Notes under the pieces: generated by a model
The model's database searches: none
Seen by the model: only the letters and a program-made list of their open reading frames with translations
What the model was told of the DNA's origin: nothing
Made by a program: the position numbers and the translations under genes
Shown: positions 13,046 to 18,808 of the stretch, one piece after another
How the letters are laid out: each line of letters opens with the position of its first letter
Position numbering within the stretch: position 1 is the stretch's first letter
Origin: a phage
Sequence record: NC_094493.1
Length of the DNA: 64,000 bases
Direction: 5' to 3' (one strand)

Positions 13046-14329
13046 TTATTCCAGCACCTCCCAAGTGTCTGGGTTAACATTTCGGACGCAGATACCGACA
13101 GGGAATTGGTAGTTGTTGTCTTCTGTCCTTGCTTGATATTTGAAGGTGACAAACTTGCCGATCATTTCCTGCATTCTGTCATAGCTACGCTCCTCGTGCG
13201 TACCTTTCATCTTCATTTTAACAACAATACCTTCCTTGTCAACACAGATAAGAACACCTTCATCATTCTTATCTTTCTCAACGTCAATAACTTTCACCTC
13301 TGCGTCGTTGAACTTTTTCCATTTCAATGCTTCAGATGTTCTCTGACCGTACTCATATTTACCACAGAAGTTACGCATAATGGTACCTTCATATCCTTCG
13401 GACATGAATATACCAACAGATTCTTCGCAATGATCAACTGTGTACGCAAGCTCTGCGTCAACAACCTTGATATGGTCAAGCATCAGAGTGGTAACGGTAT
13501 CCTCTGCATCCATAAGATCCTTGCAGCGTCCAGACTCTGTTTCGGGATCCCACCACACCTTGTCGCTAGGAATATCAAAAATGTGATACTCCAGATCGTA
13601 GCTACAGTACCCACCGTAACGCAAATCATCACGAACAGGCTCAACATCGACAGGAATATCTACCTTGTTGAAGTTTTTATATGTTGATAAGCCGGACTTA
13701 ATTGCGGCATGACGGCGTTTTTTATCTGCCTCATAGTCTTTATCGATCTCGGCCTGAATCTCTTCCTGTGTGCGCCACCGTTTAGCAAGAGACACTATTT
13801 TCTGCAAAGGAAGACCATGAATGTATAGTTCCCCATCAAGTTGTTTAATCCCAGTGGTAGAATGGAAAGAACGAAGTTGCTCTAAAAGCTTTCCTTGAAT
13901 AGGGTAGGACTTATTACCACGGGAAATAAATTTAGGCTCACCATTTTGGAAAACAACAAGCAGACGAAGGCCATCTAACTTACGCAAGATCCAGCAAGGT
14001 AGTTTAAGTGCCTTGCCACGCTTCAGGTAGTCATGCACCAGCATGGGTAAAAGATCAACACCCTGCTCGCAATCTTCCATGTTTTCAACATACCCCAGAC
14101 GGACTTGTTTTTCCCACTTGCTGATAGCCTCAAGCTCGGCCTGTTGCTCAGCTGTAGTCTCATTGGCACGACCTACGTTCTTAGGTGTGCATACCGTCTC
14201 TTTGTACTGCAATTTACCGTCAAGCTTGCCAAACTCTACGATAACCTTTTCGCCATCAGTGAATACTTTCCACTGTTGGTAGCTGCCATCTTTGTTCAGT
14301 GCGTACAGTGTTGTTTTGATTTGATGCAT
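13046..14329 (-). CDS. ATP-dependent DNA ligase
   Basis: Motif I LRKLDGLR (KxDG) and EG-containing motif IV-like segment. Confidence 0.7.
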   Translation of the reverse strand: MHQIKTTLYALNKDGSYQQWKVFTDGEKVIVEFGKLDGKLQYKETVCTPKNVGRANETTAEQQAELEAISKWEKQVRLGYVENMEDCEQGVDLLPMLVHDYLKRGKALKLPCWILRKLDGLRLLVVFQNGEPKFISRGNKSYPIQGKLLEQLRSFHSTTGIKQLDGELYIHGLPLQKIVSLAKRWRTQEEIQAEIDKDYEADKKRRHAAIKSGLSTYKNFNKVDIPVDVEPVRDDLRYGGYCSYDLEYHIFDIPSDKVWWDPETESGRCKDLMDAEDTVTTLMLDHIKVVDAELAYTVDHCEESVGIFMSEGYEGTIMRNFCGKYEYGQRTSEALKWKKFNDAEVKVIDVEKDKNDEGVLICVDKEGIVVKMKMKGTHEERSYDRMQEMIGKFVTFKYQARTEDNNYQFPVGICVRNVNPDTWEVLE

Positions 14330-14598
14330 TACTCGGCCTCTTCCTTAAAAATTTTAAACATCTCTTCTTTACTCATTACCAACCAGTCTCCCATAAAGTC
14401 AACTAGCCAATCTCCCTGGTACAAGACAAGGTTACCAAAAGGCTCGACAAGCTCACACATGCGACGAAGATCTCTGGTCCGAACAGGTGACGATGTAAAC
14501 ACACCTGTATCAATCCACCGTTGCAGATCAGATACTGATGAAGAGCTTCCGTCAAACTGGTGGGCTTCTACAGGTTTAGCAAGATTAAATAACGGCAT
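14329..14598 (-). CDS. Hypothetical protein (89 aa)
   Basis: ORF only. Confidence 0.3.
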   Translation of the reverse strand: MPLFNLAKPVEAHQFDGSSSSVSDLQRWIDTGVFTSSPVRTRDLRRMCELVEPFGNLVLYQGDWLVDFMGDWLVMSKEEMFKIFKEEAE

Positions 14599-14893
14599 TG
14601 CAGTCCTCCTTCTGTAGTAGGTCTTTTATAGGATAAACAAGTAAGTGTGGATCGGAATAACGTATAGTCTTATTCTGCCACACTATGAACTTTATTACAA
14701 CCAAATTTACAATATCTTTATCACCATGTAGCCCAACACACACATTTGTCCATATTTTGTGGTTGAAGATCTTGCTATCGATGTAGATTTTAGTGTCAAA
14801 CTTATCTTCCATTCTACCTATAAGTTTGATCAGCTCCTTCATCTGGTCGCCAAACACAGCATCTTTTTCAAGATCTCTGGAATGCTTGTACAT
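14585..14893 (-). CDS. Hypothetical protein (102 aa)
   Basis: ORF only. Confidence 0.3.
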   Translation of the reverse strand: MYKHSRDLEKDAVFGDQMKELIKLIGRMEDKFDTKIYIDSKIFNHKIWTNVCVGLHGDKDIVNLVVIKFIVWQNKTIRYSDPHLLVYPIKDLLQKEDCNAVI

Positions 14894-14955
14894 AACTAAC
14901 TACCTCGCTGCATACTTTCCATAATAAGTAAAGCCGGGATTACCCGGCTATGTTG

Positions 14956-15669
14956 TCAAATATACTCTGTTACATCCTTGAAGCTCGAAGGCTTCATGAT
15001 CTTACCTTTACTGTCAAGGAATATGATAACTTTATTACCGTTGTAGAATTCTTCCTTAGCAACAAAACCTTCATATCGACCATCAAAGCGTCGCTCAAGA
15101 TCTTTAATCTCCAACTCGATGAGTTGTTCAGCAGGCATATCTGCACTGGCACCGTGTGAATACCGTAGATGGTTGACCCGTGCAAACTTGCTGTCATTCG
15201 ATTTGAGAACCTTACGCATCATCCCGCACACATCGCCGCGAAGCTGGAACAGCAAAGCTGTTGACAACTCTGCTAAGCGGTAAGCAGACGCTCTTTGCTT
15301 AGAGGTGTTTTTCGCAGCGATCAGTGTATCATAGAACTCACCAATCTTGAACTTAATACCTCGTGGATTATCAAACAGGTTTGACCACTTTTCGTGATTG
15401 TCATTAACAAGATAAGCGGCATAACTTGTGACAACATGAAGATCGCAGGCCTCTTTTAGCAAGTGATCTCCACCATCACCTTTCTCCAGCTCTTCCAAAA
15501 CTTCATTGAACTCTTCCTCAATGAAGCTAAGCTGTAATTCGAATGGTGTGTATGATTTTTTCACCTTAGCTGCCACACGGTTCCAGTTTTCCACCCAGTT
15601 GGCAGACCAAAGGTAGTTTTCAGGCTGAGACAGTTTTTCCAGGTTGTCGATCAGTTTAGTATTCAGCAT
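14956..15669 (-). CDS. Hypothetical protein, possibly MazG-like all-alpha NTP pyrophosphatase
   Basis: EEEFNEVLEELEKGD...EACDL resembles the MazG EExxE/D motif; weak. Confidence 0.3.
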   Translation of the reverse strand: MLNTKLIDNLEKLSQPENYLWSANWVENWNRVAAKVKKSYTPFELQLSFIEEEFNEVLEELEKGDGGDHLLKEACDLHVVTSYAAYLVNDNHEKWSNLFDNPRGIKFKIGEFYDTLIAAKNTSKQRASAYRLAELSTALLFQLRGDVCGMMRKVLKSNDSKFARVNHLRYSHGASADMPAEQLIELEIKDLERRFDGRYEGFVAKEEFYNGNKVIIFLDSKGKIMKPSSFKDVTEYI

Positions 15670-15682
15670 TAAAGGTCTCCTT

Positions 15683-16444
15683 TTAAAGTTCCATAAAGTT
15701 TTCTACAGTTTCAATAAATACTTTATCAGAGAAAGCGTCAACAGCACCGTTAAACCATACAGGGATCCCGCGATCCTCATATTGATAAAGGTCGCTACGT
15801 GAAATGCCACTTCCATCTGCACTCTGCGAATCATACTTGTTTACAATCAGCAGTTTTGTGCCTTTACAAGTAGCAGGAAACAATTCCCAGTTAAAATTAA
15901 TAACTGTGTTAGAACAACCTACCAGGATAACCATATCATTGCTTGTGAGAGATGTCAACAGGTCATACATGTCTGTATACTTAGGAGCAACCTCACCGAA
16001 GAACACTACATTGGGCTTAACCCAGGTATACTTACCTGTATCTACCTCCGTGTATCCGATATTTTTAATTACATCATTACCTTCAGCATCTTCGTAGGTG
16101 ATTTCAGGCAAATACCCGTGGACATGTAAAATATCTTCATGTTTTACACCAGCACGCTCCAGCAAATCATCTACATTGGTGGTAAGGTTGATCACACGAC
16201 CAGACCAGCGGGAATACCACTCAGCGATCCGAAGATGTGCAAGGTTAGGATCAACACTGCCCAGAGCTACACGACGTGCATTGTAAAAGTCATGCACCTT
16301 ATAGTAGTTCTTGGCAAAGGTGTGGATGTTGCACACCTCATCTATGCTGAAATTCTCCCACATTGCAGTACTACCAGATCGGAAAGTGGGAATACCAGAT
16401 TCAGCGCTCAAACCAGCACCGGAGATAATAATCAGTCGTCGCAT
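15683..16444 (-). CDS. Sir2-family (sirtuin) NAD-dependent enzyme lacking the zinc ribbon
   Basis: GAGLSAESGIPTFR, TTNVDDL, catalytic-His-like HVHG and PNVVFFGE motifs; no CxxC...CxxC between the HG and VVFFGE motifs. Confidence 0.75.
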   Translation of the reverse strand: MRRLIIISGAGLSAESGIPTFRSGSTAMWENFSIDEVCNIHTFAKNYYKVHDFYNARRVALGSVDPNLAHLRIAEWYSRWSGRVINLTTNVDDLLERAGVKHEDILHVHGYLPEITYEDAEGNDVIKNIGYTEVDTGKYTWVKPNVVFFGEVAPKYTDMYDLLTSLTSNDMVILVGCSNTVINFNWELFPATCKGTKLLIVNKYDSQSADGSGISRSDLYQYEDRGIPVWFNGAVDAFSDKVFIETVENFMEL

Positions 16445-16452
16445 AAGTGCCC

Positions 16453-16803
16453 TCAGTAGATGTTTTGTTTAATCTCTATTCCAAACTTTTTAAACGAGTC
16501 AGCTGCAAGCATGAATTTACGAGCCGCTGATGGATTAGAAGTATGTACGAAAATCTTCACGTTGTCAACCACGGGAGGCTTACCGAATACAAATTTTTCC
16601 TCCAACATGGATAGGCAATCGTATCCTTCGAATACTTCTCCTAGGTCGTTGTCCATATGCCACTCAGAAACGCGTCTGTAGAGCTTTCCCTTATCGTTAA
16701 TAAAATCCATAAACTCGGAGGAATTCTTCAGCCAAACAGCGTCTGGGAGCCCGTAATTTGACGGATCTCTTAAGTCATCTAGCCACACAATCAACTTCTT
16801 CAT
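16453..16803 (-). CDS. Hypothetical protein (116 aa), translationally coupled to the RNA ligase gene
   Basis: Start overlaps the ligase stop (ATGA); 9-nt gap to the Sir2 gene. Confidence 0.35.
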   Translation of the reverse strand: MKKLIVWLDDLRDPSNYGLPDAVWLKNSSEFMDFINDKGKLYRRVSEWHMDNDLGEVFEGYDCLSMLEEKFVFGKPPVVDNVKIFVHTSNPSAARKFMLAADSFKKFGIEIKQNIY

Positions 16804-17735
16804 TGCATATAGTTCTCGTTGTGGAAATAGTAATCAAGTATCTCACGGCGTTCCTGCTCCAGGAGGCAGTTCCACACATCCTCTGTGTAATTGCTACGAA
16901 TGAAGTTTACCATGCCGTAAAACTCTTCGTCAACACGTTTAAAGATATCATCATCCCAAATCTTCCAAGCTTTACCCCTCATTACGGCCTTCCGTGCCAG
17001 ATAGTATGGAGACTTGATCTTCAGCTGCAGATCATAAGGGTAGTAAGGCTTACGAATCATATACCCTTCACCTCTTGTTTCTGCAGCTAATTCTTTTGCA
17101 TAGCTGAACGGAATTTCACGCACAGTGTGAGGACGTTTTGCACCAAGGTATTTGGCAATCCCATCTAAAGCTGCTTCTGGTAGCATTATTCCAGAATCAT
17201 TATATCTGCAACCTATCAAATATGCGCCATGATCTTCCTGAACAATATGCGGATCTGAAGGGTGACAAATTTCAAACATGAATGTCATGTTTTCATTGCC
17301 CATAACCTTCTTGATAAGATCTAAATTACCACATTGCTCTTGGATGGTTTCCTTTGCAAGGTTACAATATGGAGAATCAAGAGACCCGGTTGTTGAGAAC
17401 AATAGTTCACCTTTATGAGATGATACCACACCGAGGAATCCGTTCTTTTTCTCTACCGCAGTAACAAGTTTACTGTCCGGTAGGTTGGTGGAGTTTTCTC
17501 CTAAGTTGAATACTTTTGTGAAAGGCCATGCCACAACATTCCCCTCATTGCCAACAACAATACCTCGGCACTCCAGTAAACGCGGAGACAAATGCCACAG
17601 ATTGTTGTAGAATACTTTTCTGGCATATTTATAGATCTTTAATCCAAGATCTGGATAATACCGACTGGTTACAAGACCTTTGTCTACTAGGTCATCTGCA
17701 TTAAAATACTTCATCATACGTTCCTCATTTGTCAT
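16800..17735 (-). CDS. ATP-dependent polynucleotide (probably RNA) ligase
   Basis: Motif I-like VEKKNGF (KxNG), motif IV-like EGYMIRK and KIK motif V-like segment. Confidence 0.5.
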   Translation of the reverse strand: MTNEERMMKYFNADDLVDKGLVTSRYYPDLGLKIYKYARKVFYNNLWHLSPRLLECRGIVVGNEGNVVAWPFTKVFNLGENSTNLPDSKLVTAVEKKNGFLGVVSSHKGELLFSTTGSLDSPYCNLAKETIQEQCGNLDLIKKVMGNENMTFMFEICHPSDPHIVQEDHGAYLIGCRYNDSGIMLPEAALDGIAKYLGAKRPHTVREIPFSYAKELAAETRGEGYMIRKPYYPYDLQLKIKSPYYLARKAVMRGKAWKIWDDDIFKRVDEEFYGMVNFIRSNYTEDVWNCLLEQERREILDYYFHNENYMQ

Positions 17736-17778
17736 TTTGTCAGTCTATCCTGCCACACAAATAACCTAGTGTCAACAC

Positions 17779-17807
17779 TTGAAATTAACAAAACAGTTAG
17801 GTATACT
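17779..17807 (+). promoter_or_regulatory. Sigma70-type promoter (TTGAAA, 17 bp, TATACT)
   Basis: Read directly from sequence upstream of the kinase gene. Confidence 0.4.
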
Positions 17808-17835: not shown

Positions 17836-18246
17836 ATGTCTAAAATGCTATATATCGTGCGTGGTCTGCCAGGGTCTGGCAAATCAACACTGGCAAATGC
17901 GCTATCTTTAGAAGGTCTGTATCCACATTTTGAGAACGACATGTTCTGGTATGACGATGACGGCAATTACAACTGGGATGCAAGTAAAGTAACACTCGCA
18001 GCAAAATGGTGCAAAGATAACGTAGAAGATATGATGCGTATGGGATACGACCGTATCGTGGTAAGTAATACGTTTACAAAAGAAAAACATGTGCAGGAAT
18101 ATGTTGACATGGCAATCAGTCACGGGTATAGTTATACCGTGATCGTGGTTGAAAACCGCCACGGTAATAAAAGCATTCATGATGTTCCAGACAAGGTTGT
18201 GGATCGTATGGAACGCCAGCTTAAAAACTGCATTAAACTTAAATGA
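17836..18246 (+). CDS. Polynucleotide kinase-like P-loop kinase
   Basis: Start moved to ATG after GGAGGG RBS; Walker A GLPGSGKST as in T4 Pnk kinase domain. Confidence 0.55.
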   Translation: MSKMLYIVRGLPGSGKSTLANALSLEGLYPHFENDMFWYDDDGNYNWDASKVTLAAKWCKDNVEDMMRMGYDRIVVSNTFTKEKHVQEYVDMAISHGYSYTVIVVENRHGNKSIHDVPDKVVDRMERQLKNCIKLK

Positions 18247-18253
18247 GGAATGT

Positions 18254-18808
18254 ATGAAATACTTTGTAACAAGCGACACACACTTTCTCCACCAGCGGGT
18301 CATGGAGTTTGATTCATGTCAAAAACACAGATCTCAGTATGATCACAATCTTGACAGTATGAATGCGGGAATCATCACCAAGTGGAACTCTGTTGTGTCA
18401 CCTGCAGACACTGTGTTTCACTTGGGAGATATTGCGTGCACTAATGATAAGAATATCAACAAATTGCTCCCAGATGTTCTAAATATGTTGAACGGACATA
18501 TTATTCTTGTTCGTGGTAACCATGACACAAGGACGACTGTCAGAATTATGAAAGAGTTCGGTCATGAGGTTGTAGATTATTACGAGCTTCGCCACAACAA
18601 GAATTTGATCTGTATGAGCCATTACCAGTTTGCAAAGTGGAACAGAAAGCCTCACGGATCAGTCCAACTGTTCGGTCATGCTCACGGAACCACACAGCAG
18701 TTGTTTGGCAGGCAGTTTGATGTCGGTTGGGATGTGTGGGGGAGACTCTTACCATTAGAAGAGGCATACCGTATTGCAATGAGTCTTGCTATTGACAGCG
18801 GGGAGTAA
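18254..18808 (+). CDS. Calcineurin-like metallophosphoesterase
   Basis: Start moved to ATG (MKYFVTSDTHF); SDTHF, GDI and GNHD motifs. Confidence 0.6.
   Translation: MKYFVTSDTHFLHQRVMEFDSCQKHRSQYDHNLDSMNAGIITKWNSVVSPADTVFHLGDIACTNDKNINKLLPDVLNMLNGHIILVRGNHDTRTTVRIMKEFGHEVVDYYELRHNKNLICMSHYQFAKWNRKPHGSVQLFGHAHGTTQQLFGRQFDVGWDVWGRLLPLEEAYRIAMSLAIDSGE

Follow-up and report, generated by a model that had tools for sequence, protein, structure and literature searches.

Our literature search on phage sirtuins turned up an in silico study of 2016 and comparative-genomics papers of 2021 and 2022, and no experimental work on any of these proteins. Here we analyse one such gene, which encodes a zinc-free Sir2-family protein on the minus strand of a 64,000-nucleotide stretch of phage DNA (sequence record NC_094493.1; this whole stretch is called the window below). 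Skliros et al. (2016) modelled the Sir2/CobB proteins of the Vibrio phages phiSt2, phiGrn1 and KVP40, described a missing zinc site together with a conserved catalytic histidine and FxE loop, and noted homologues in T5 and other phages (PMC5107563). They proposed that salt bridges substitute for the zinc, and predicted a deacetylase that activates acetyl-CoA synthetase (PMC5107563). Iyer, Burroughs, Anantharaman and Aravind (2022, Viruses 14:1977) described the gene neighbourhood treated here in Escherichia phage V5 and Proteus phage Mydo, along with jumbo-phage and T5-like (SP15) configurations, and proposed that phage sirtuins remove RNA 2'-phosphates in the manner of KptA/Tpt1 (PMC9503650); the same group had defined the cREC domain in 2021 (PMC7824862). 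Gene, genus and neighbourhood in the window are those of the clade of Iyer et al., with nothing different in kind, and all three of their configurations were reproduced in our survey. The zinc-less state (2016), the neighbourhood and its predicted mechanism (2022) and the annotation of the gene are already known. Our analysis adds the deletion of the second zinc knuckle with conserved aromatic residues in the same ribbon, the coupling of zinc loss to a Gln to Thr89 exchange, an invariant Cys38 and a Pro to Asn183 exchange. It further adds the operon boundaries, the acidic isoelectric point (pI) and an enrichment of RNA-repair neighbours beside the zinc-less forms. The interpretation we favour, tentatively and somewhat short of even confidence, is that the protein is an active enzyme that consumes nicotinamide adenine dinucleotide (NAD+) and serves an RNA heal-and-seal module of the phage.

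The gene itself is as follows.

15683..16444, minus strand: Sir2-family (sirtuin) gene, zinc-free, 253 amino acids, ATG start; assigned by Pfam, PHROG, the match to CobB, AlphaFold2 and Foldseek

A first-pass annotation of this DNA had recognised a Sir2-family protein encoded by a phage, and profile searches bear this out. The protein scores 98.2 bits with Pfam SIR2 (PF02146), whose gathering threshold is 24 (E=7e-28; profile positions 1-178 of 180), and belongs to the phage sirtuin profile PHROG 2162 ('Sir2'; E=1.6e-108 over residues 1-252). Its best relatives of solved structure, by sequence, are Escherichia coli CobB (1s5p, E=3e-21), SIRT5 and Archaeoglobus Sir2Af1. The AlphaFold2 model, with a mean predicted local distance difference test score (pLDDT) of 90.2 and a predicted template-modelling (TM) score of 0.88, has the sirtuin fold of a Rossmann domain plus a small domain: a Foldseek search of the PDB places CobB at the top (E=1.5e-18, TM scores 0.75/0.84), followed by Sir2Af1, SIRT5 and SIRT2. 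The significance of the Sir2-family assignment is far above chance. Placement within the family is less direct. The top NCBIfam matches are all deacylase models, reached at about a third to half of their cutoffs: the CobB equivalog models NF040867, NF001755 and NF001752 give 104 against 320, 93 against 318 and 72 against 221 bits, and the subfamily model NF001753 gives 122.6 against 243. Because these scores lie far below every curated CobB cutoff, we file the protein, on its sequence, as a class-III-like sirtuin and not as a CobB equivalog.

The window belongs to a Vequintavirus (rV5-like phage), and the region around the gene is 96-98% identical to more than 100 rV5-like phage genomes, whose records annotate the gene as Sir2-like or cobB. 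Escherichia phage JES2013 encodes a 100% identical protein, annotated 'putative Sir2-like protein (NAD-dependent deacetylase)'. Of 50,697 phage records, 1010 contain a homologue; the groups represented are Vequintavirinae, T5-like Demerecviridae, Phapecoctavirus, 145-kb Klebsiella and Salmonella phages, Vibrio schizoT4-like phages and jumbo phages. Among the 949 relatives from a search of a large database, the top 120 share 46-93% identity with the phage protein; homologous Vibrio phage proteins are 41-50% identical to it. The protein is acidic (pI 4.9, net charge -12, computed over the whole protein), as is its clade (median pI 5.1). Some database entries deserve a remark. Eighteen GenBank records of the MG0656xx series, all named 'Campylobacter phage' (host Campylobacter jejuni) and most of them unannotated, are 96-98% identical to positions 14900-17800 of the window; a Campylobacter host looks doubtful for these records, which may reflect contamination or mislabelling. 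Protein P0037 of Klebsiella phage vB_Kpn_3, a full-length Sir2 homologue with 50% identity and a Pfam SIR2 match, carries the source name 'tail assembly protein', a likely misannotation.

The likeness to CobB and SIRT5 (1s5p, 6rxj, 3riy) covers the fold, the NAD motifs, the catalytic histidine, the FGE loop, the Y-x-x-R motif and a similar set of acyl-pocket residues. The phage protein differs from both in having no zinc ligands and a deleted second knuckle, in reading TTNVD for TQNID, GCS for GTS and VIN for VYP, and in replacing the pocket alanine by Cys38; it is also acidic, phage-encoded and part of an RNA-repair operon. These elements lie in the window as listed here, with residues called invariant where they are so throughout our clade alignment of 39 sequences, which reaches down to 46% identity, and with CobB and SIRT5 residue numbers taken from the literature and from PDB entry titles.

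16379..16420, minus strand: GAGLSAESGIPTFR, NAD-binding (cofactor-loop) motif, residues 9-22; G9, A10, G11, S16, G17, F21 and R22 invariant
16331..16333, minus strand: Cys38, invariant, at the acyl-pocket position of CobB Ala76 and SIRT5 Ala86 in the alignments
16274..16285, minus strand: Tyr54-Asn-Ala-Arg57, class III Y-x-x-R motif; invariant in the 39 sequences and placed by the CobB and SIRT5 alignments
16166..16183, minus strand: TTNVDD, residues 88-93, variant of the canonical TQN(I/V)D; Asn90 and Asp92 kept, Gln replaced by Thr89
16118..16120, minus strand: catalytic His109 of HVHG (residues 107-110); His109 invariant
16016..16117, minus strand: zinc-free ribbon, residues 110-143; three predicted beta strands, defined by cysteine counts and alignments
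15992..16015, minus strand: PNVVFFGE, substrate-binding (FGE) loop, residues 144-151; K143, P144, F148, F149 and E151 invariant
15893..15919, minus strand: GCSNTVINF, residues 176-184, in place of GTSxxVxP; peptide-binding-loop Pro replaced by Asn or Asp at position 183

The motifs that the first-pass annotation had picked out (residues 9-22, TTNVDDL at 88-94, HVHG at 107-110 and PNVVFFGE at 144-151) are all present, and the alignment shows how firmly they are held. About 50 positions are invariant over the 39 sequences, including every NAD-contacting and catalytic residue; the core consists of GAGxSxxSGxxxFR, Y54, R57, N90, D92, H109, FFGE and N202. The NAD-binding loop, the Asn and Asp of QNxD and the catalytic His expected of a sirtuin are thereby accounted for. 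Tyr54 and Arg57 align with Y102 and R105 of SIRT5 and with Y92 and R95 of CobB, the class III motif that in those two enzymes binds the anionic (acidic) acyl group. Arg57 is not retained in more distant relatives such as the homologue of jumbo phage PHA46. The CobB pocket residues A76, Y92, R95, I131 and V187 correspond to C38, Y54, R57, V91 and V146 of the phage protein. Within this small family of viral sirtuins, most of the zinc-bearing relatives have Cys38 as well. The rV5-type protein lacks an insertion of 20-28 residues, such as GFHYLDDPMPPLEALSEGSDDEPSRNL, that many T5-like and Phapecoctavirus homologues carry within the helical portion of the small domain (columns 50-77 of alignment A1; the corresponding point in the window protein falls between residues 50 and 51).

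Cysteines occur in the phage protein only at positions 38, 177 and 193, none of them between His109 and Glu151. The first-pass annotation was therefore right that the Cys4 zinc ribbon is absent: no CxxC...CxxC is present in the small domain, metal content being judged here from the letters of the sequence. The loss extends to the whole clade: of the 120 closest homologues, 88 could be parsed from the His to the FGE loop, and of these 62 have no cysteine there, 25 have one and one has two. There is no alternative metal site, since residues 110-143 hold no conserved set of Cys, His, Asp or Glu across the 39-sequence alignment; the annotation had named a cryptic zinc site as the finding that would overturn it. 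What the ribbon does conserve in this alignment is Y/F111, L112, G130, Y131, Y/F139, W141 and K143. Relatives with 45-50% identity retain the classical CxxC...CxxC, and aligned to them the first CxxC becomes Tyr117..Ala120 and the second CxxC knuckle is deleted. AlphaFold2 models the ribbon strands (110-118, 124-128 and 142-146) at a pLDDT of about 95. Given the conserved aromatic and hydrophobic residues and the lack of alternative ligands, we infer that a small aromatic core probably stands in for the metal. In this the rV5 clade departs from the proposal made for the Vibrio schizoT4-like phages, as it conserves aromatic residues rather than the proposed salt bridges, and its gene sits in an RNA-ligase operon. 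Because the role of zinc in sirtuins is structural, little can be read about chemistry from its loss alone.

The ribbon is not the only place where the clade departs from the sirtuin standard. The Gln of the canonical TQN(I/V)D, which aligns with that of CobB TQNID, is Thr89 in 39 of 39 clade members. Across 128 parsed representatives of the wider family, 38 lack both the Gln and the zinc site and 71 have both; 12 have zinc without the Gln, and seven have the Gln without zinc. A non-Gln residue thus goes with zinc loss (odds ratio 32, Fisher p=4e-15, a statistic that ignores phylogeny). A literature search on the role of this Gln (SIRT5 Q140L) found nothing.

The setting of the gene in the window is that of an RNA-repair locus, with the following features around it.

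16800..17735, minus strand: T4 Rnl1-type RNA ligase, 311 amino acids, first gene of the operon (Pfam PF09511, E=9e-15; PHROG 562, E=4e-66)
16453..16803, minus strand: cREC (cyclic-phosphate-processing receiver-like) protein, 116 amino acids (Pfam PF20274, cREC_REC, E=1.5e-14; PHROG 1479)
14956..15669, minus strand: MazG-like nucleotide pyrophosphohydrolase, 237 amino acids, last gene of the operon (PHROG 671, E=5e-22; annotation of phage Murica)
14932..14949, minus strand: terminator-like GC-rich hairpin after the MazG-like gene; phage Murica has an annotated terminator at the corresponding position
17836..18246, plus strand: P-loop kinase (AAA_33, polynucleotide-kinase-like), divergent from the operon (Pfam PF13671, E=1.7e-10; PHROG 2071 and the polynucleotide-kinase PHROG 505)
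18254..18808, plus strand: calcineurin-like metallophosphoesterase, divergent from the operon (Pfam PF12850/PF00149; PHROG 547, E=5e-51)
13046..14329, minus strand: ATP-dependent DNA ligase, downstream of the operon; immediately next to the Sir2 gene in related phages of 145 kb
21744..22556, plus strand: cluster of seven tRNA genes, about 3 kb from the RNA-repair genes

The stop of the Rnl1 gene overlaps the start of cREC, 8 nucleotides separate cREC from the Sir2 gene and 13 separate the Sir2 gene from the MazG-like gene. With the terminator-like hairpin that follows, this arrangement reads as a single transcription unit, and Rnl1-cREC-Sir2-MazG looks like one four-gene operon. The MazG-like protein has no match in a Pfam scan, and a PDB sequence search with the neighbouring RNA ligase and cREC returned no relatives. 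A Pfam scan of the neighbourhood found no macro domain among the genes next to Sir2, and a tblastn search within the window found no NAMPT, the NAD+ salvage enzyme.

The same company recurs elsewhere. We surveyed 62 viral loci that carry close homologues. The set described by Iyer et al. (T4-like RNA ligase, cREC, nucleotide kinase, MazG-like protein and calcineurin-like phosphoesterase), complete in the window, is found in 12-14 of the 62. About 12 phages of 135-153 kb combine RNA ligase, kinase, phosphoesterase, MazG and DNA ligase, mostly with cREC, in varying gene order; one arrangement in phages of 145-153 kb is Rnl1-cREC-kinase-Sir2-DNA ligase. A further 28 of the 62 loci are T5-like and have the gene for a HAD_SAK_2 'RNA repair' phosphatase 0-450 nucleotides downstream of Sir2. 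The public label of this phosphatase gene deserves attention: the 171-residue product of L065:6156-6671 (Salmonella phage fuchur, HWD25_gp068) and often its equivalents in loci L004-L051 are named as a second 'Sir2 (NAD-dependent deacetylase)'; Pfam assigns the gene to HAD_SAK_2, the 'Swiss army knife RNA repair' phosphatases (E=7e-18), so that the public annotation is probably wrong.

The larger genomes offer further arrangements. In jumbo phages such as Salmonella phage PHA46 the order is 2H (Acb1-like)-Sir2-122-residue open reading frame (ORF)-Nudix-cREC, with NAMPT and an NMNAT-like gene a few genes away. The PHA46 gene labelled 'RNA ligase' (L067:4513-4959) is a small 2H phosphoesterase matching the anti-CBASS Acb1 family (E=1.7e-16), and the cluster of NAMPT, NMNAT-like cytidyltransferase, Nudix and cREC resembles an NAD/nucleotide counter-defence island. 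Locus L064, from a 608-kb contig classed as viral, has a 407-residue Rnl1-type RNA ligase and an arginase-family gene (E=9e-76; L064:3582-4805 and L064:4818-5723), with a zinc-bearing Sir2 relative directly after them. In locus L063, Sir2 is accompanied by DUF4326 and a nucleoside deoxyribosyltransferase-like gene.

For a comparison by zinc state, 80 viral loci were gathered with zinc-bearing relatives as query. A jackhmmer search of neighbours found RNA-end enzymes common beside zinc-less Sir2 genes and rare beside zinc-bearing ones. Its seeds were the zinc-less clade's own neighbours, which biases it toward relatives of the seed genes, and we therefore repeated the comparison as a seed-free Pfam scan, with the Sir2 proteins clustered at 70% identity and the five nearest ORFs of each locus scanned. 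Tallies were read from the 25 commonest families listed and count members, not loci. On this basis, the neighbours of the 30 zinc-less clusters include HAD_SAK_2 (4), RNA_lig_T4_1 (4), AAA_33 (3) and cREC (2), and those of the 28 zinc-bearing clusters include one RNA_lig_T4_1 and no HAD_SAK_2, AAA_33 or cREC; the other neighbours of the zinc-bearing clusters are miscellaneous (nitroreductase, glycosyltransferase, ankyrin and others). At least one RNA-end neighbour is present in about 8 of 30 zinc-less and about 1 of 28 zinc-bearing clusters (Fisher p about 0.03, approximate and ignoring phylogeny). RNA-end-processing neighbours are thus modestly enriched beside zinc-less viral sirtuins. The suspicion voiced in the first-pass annotation, that zinc-less forms may differ in role, gains modest favour from this enrichment.

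It is against this background that we tentatively favour an RNA-repair role. In Tpt1, the 2'-phosphate oxygen of the substrate attacks the nicotinamide ribose at C1'', after which attack by the ribose 2''-OH gives ADP-ribose 1'',2''-cyclic phosphate. In sirtuins, the same two roles fall to the acyl oxygen, which attacks at C1', and to the ribose 2'-OH, which the His activates for attack on the acyl carbon. The phage protein would be a folded, catalytically competent sirtuin of the CobB/SIRT5 type (class III), in which the zinc ribbon has been exchanged for a shorter, metal-free beta ribbon held by aromatic residues. It would be produced from one transcript with the Rnl1-type RNA ligase, the cREC phosphoesterase-like protein and the MazG-like pyrophosphatase, and would carry out an NAD+-dependent step in a pathway that heals and seals RNA (tRNA) and so counters host ribonucleases. 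By analogy, the substrate may be the RNA 2'-phosphate that remains once a 2',3'-cyclic end has been opened. Tyr54 and Arg57, a pair that could bind a phosphate in the way it binds a carboxylate, would position an anionic oxygen of this group for attack on the nicotinamide ribose at C1', with nicotinamide as the leaving group. In a second step, assisted by His109, the ribose 2'-OH would displace the group, yielding repaired RNA and ADP-ribose 1'',2''-cyclic phosphate, which the adjoining phosphoesterases may clear. Macro domains usually process O-acyl-ADP-ribose; phosphoesterase neighbours with no macro domain nearby therefore fit a phosphorylated ADP-ribose product. The linkage to RNA-end and ADP-ribose enzymes recurs in unrelated arrangements (the 145-153 kb phages, T5-like phages, PHA46 and L064), a tRNA cluster lies 3 kb away, and Iyer et al. 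(2022) had arrived at this prediction for phage V5 (PMC9503650). The resemblance to Tpt1/KptA lies in the use of NAD+ and in the association with RNA ligase, kinase and cyclic-phosphodiesterase genes (PMC9503650). The phage fold is that of a sirtuin, unrelated to Tpt1/KptA, and the absence of any such Pfam match means that no sequence similarity is seen; the phage protein would be a functional analogue only.

It is tempting to go further and speculate that zinc-less, Thr89-type phage sirtuins are the first sirtuins to act on nucleic acids, convergent analogues of Tpt1/KptA that strip a 2'- or other terminal phosphate from broken tRNA or mRNA in counter-defence. We regard this stronger proposal as rather unlikely. 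On it, the trimming of the ribbon and the exchanges of Gln for Thr, loop Pro for Asn and pocket Ala for Cys would be adaptations to the new substrate. The idea of nucleic-acid action was published as a prediction in 2022, and novelty would therefore lie in its proof and in the link to these sequence changes. As a variant, the enzyme may deacylate N-acylated aminoacyl-tRNA produced by toxin acetyltransferases.

Several considerations weigh against a role in RNA repair. We know of no biochemical evidence that a sirtuin acts on RNA. The acyl-lysine pocket of CobB is nearly all kept and the FGE loop is canonical, for which reason the default expectation is a lysine deacylase. A pI of 4.9 with a net charge of -12 is unusual for an RNA-binding enzyme. 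Kinase, metallophosphoesterase and Rnl1 together make up a complete T4-style heal-and-seal set, which leaves no 2'-phosphate. The homologue that lacks Arg57, that of PHA46, is the very one with the cREC, 2H and Nudix context. Pfam and PHROG scans of the neighbours in Phapecoctavirus-type loci found no recognisable RNA-repair gene, only unknown families and one 'DNA methyltransferase' family. Finally, the linkage may in part be synteny inherited among related phages; the association statistics ignore phylogeny.

The strongest rival, to which we give substantial but minority credence, takes the protein for an ordinary CobB/SIRT5-like lysine deacylase (acetyl, succinyl or malonyl) that remodels the acylation of host or phage proteins, with zinc loss as a neutral simplification. 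It may act, among other targets, on enzymes of the acetyl-CoA synthetase type or on the RNA and DNA ligases encoded next door, at their catalytic lysines. That the closest sequence and fold matches (CobB, SIRT5, Sir2Af1) and the top NCBIfam models are all deacylases speaks for this, as do the invariant His109, FGE loop and Y-x-x-R and the retained CobB pocket. Moreover, because relatives at 45-50% identity still bear the zinc ribbon, zinc loss need not alter the chemistry; deacylation was the conclusion of Skliros et al. (2016) for the zinc-less Vibrio phage homologues (PMC5107563), and in 145-kb phages the gene for an ATP-dependent DNA ligase lies immediately beside that for Sir2. A plain deacylase sits less easily with scores far below all CobB equivalog cutoffs and with the clade-wide changes of Gln to Thr89, GTS to GCS and the VxP Pro to Asn or Asp183. 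The recurrent neighbours, moreover, are phosphoesterases and RNA-end enzymes, not acyl-CoA, acetyltransferase or macro-domain genes, and the host already encodes CobB.

A further possibility, which we consider improbable, is that the protein serves host take-over or counter-defence as an ADP-ribosyltransferase or a regulated NADase, modifying a host protein or nucleic acid or acting on NAD-derived immune signalling from within an anti-defence island. The PHA46 homologue, placed between the Acb1-like 2H gene and Nudix and cREC and near NAMPT and an NMNAT-like gene, invites this view, as do NAMPT genes near the homologue in several other loci and the position of the L063 homologue between DUF4326 and the nucleoside deoxyribosyltransferase-like gene. 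ADP-ribosylation is a known activity of some sirtuins (PMC4518038). Class M sirtuins (SirTM) and defence Sir2 proteins are both non-deacylases of the Sir2 superfamily that act in conflict systems. SirTM proteins have a zinc-coordinating domain, replace the catalytic His by Gln with a partner Arg, and are encoded in operons or fusions with a macro domain and GcvH-L (PMC4518038). We tried and rejected a SirTM-like assignment: His109 is invariant, no macro-domain partner is present, and SirTM itself binds zinc (PMC4518038). A defence-type Sir2 NADase (ThsA, DSR1/2, Sir2-HerA, pAgo-Sir2) was likewise rejected; the sole PADLOC match is the unnamed PDC-S65 (E=0.011, 13 bits), Pfam SIR2_2 gives E=0.097 and 13.2 bits against a cutoff of 24.5, and the 253-residue protein has a single domain and is encoded in a lytic phage operon. 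Defence Sir2 proteins are fused to or paired with sensor modules, and the phage Sir2 has none. A free NADase would, in addition, drain NAD+ that the phage itself needs, and no NAMPT was found in the window to replenish it.

These comparisons bear on the caution of the first-pass annotation that deacetylation should not be assumed. The caution is reasonable, because the scores fall far below the CobB cutoffs and the context points to RNA-end repair; the reasoning offered for it was weak. Its link between zinc loss and ADP-ribosylating sirtuins is undercut by the zinc domain of SirTM, which lacks the catalytic His that the phage protein keeps (PMC4518038), and kinship to NAD+-degrading defence Sir2 proteins finds no support in the PADLOC and SIR2_2 scores.

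The last alternative, a decayed, non-catalytic sirtuin relic destabilised by the loss of its zinc site and kept as a binding or scaffold protein, has in its favour that the conserved Gln and all four zinc ligands are gone, and is hardly credible in view of the roughly 50 invariant positions with all NAD-contacting and catalytic residues among them, the homologues in 1010 phage records of several families, the ribbon predicted at a pLDDT of about 95 and an intact gene that is translationally coupled in its operon.

Should the RNA role hold, the reach of sirtuin chemistry would include RNA ends as well as protein lysines, the 2'-phosphate problem of RNA repair would have a second, independent solution, and coliphages would have a further route to resist ribonuclease-based immunity. 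Should the protein be a plain deacylase, the sirtuin small domain would be able to fold without zinc, and phages would be adjusting the acylation of host or phage proteins. The phages concerned (rV5-like, T5-like, Klebsiella and Vibrio phages) make up about 2% of sequenced phage records, and several of these groups are used in therapy or biocontrol. Either way, our results re-discover published observations and would not surprise a specialist.

Two minor features of the window remain to be described. Between the operon and the DNA ligase gene, at 14329-14893 on the minus strand, lie two small conserved ORFs of 89 and 102 amino acids (PHROGs 14585 and 7684), which accompany the RNA-repair module in related phages of 135-153 kb. 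Within the tRNA cluster, ARAGORN reports a tRNA of 99 nucleotides at 22213-22311 on the plus strand with no assigned identity and a four-base anticodon (atcc); its equivalent in phage Murica is annotated 'tRNA-OTHER Asp|Gly', and it may be intron-containing, frameshift-suppressor-like or degenerate.

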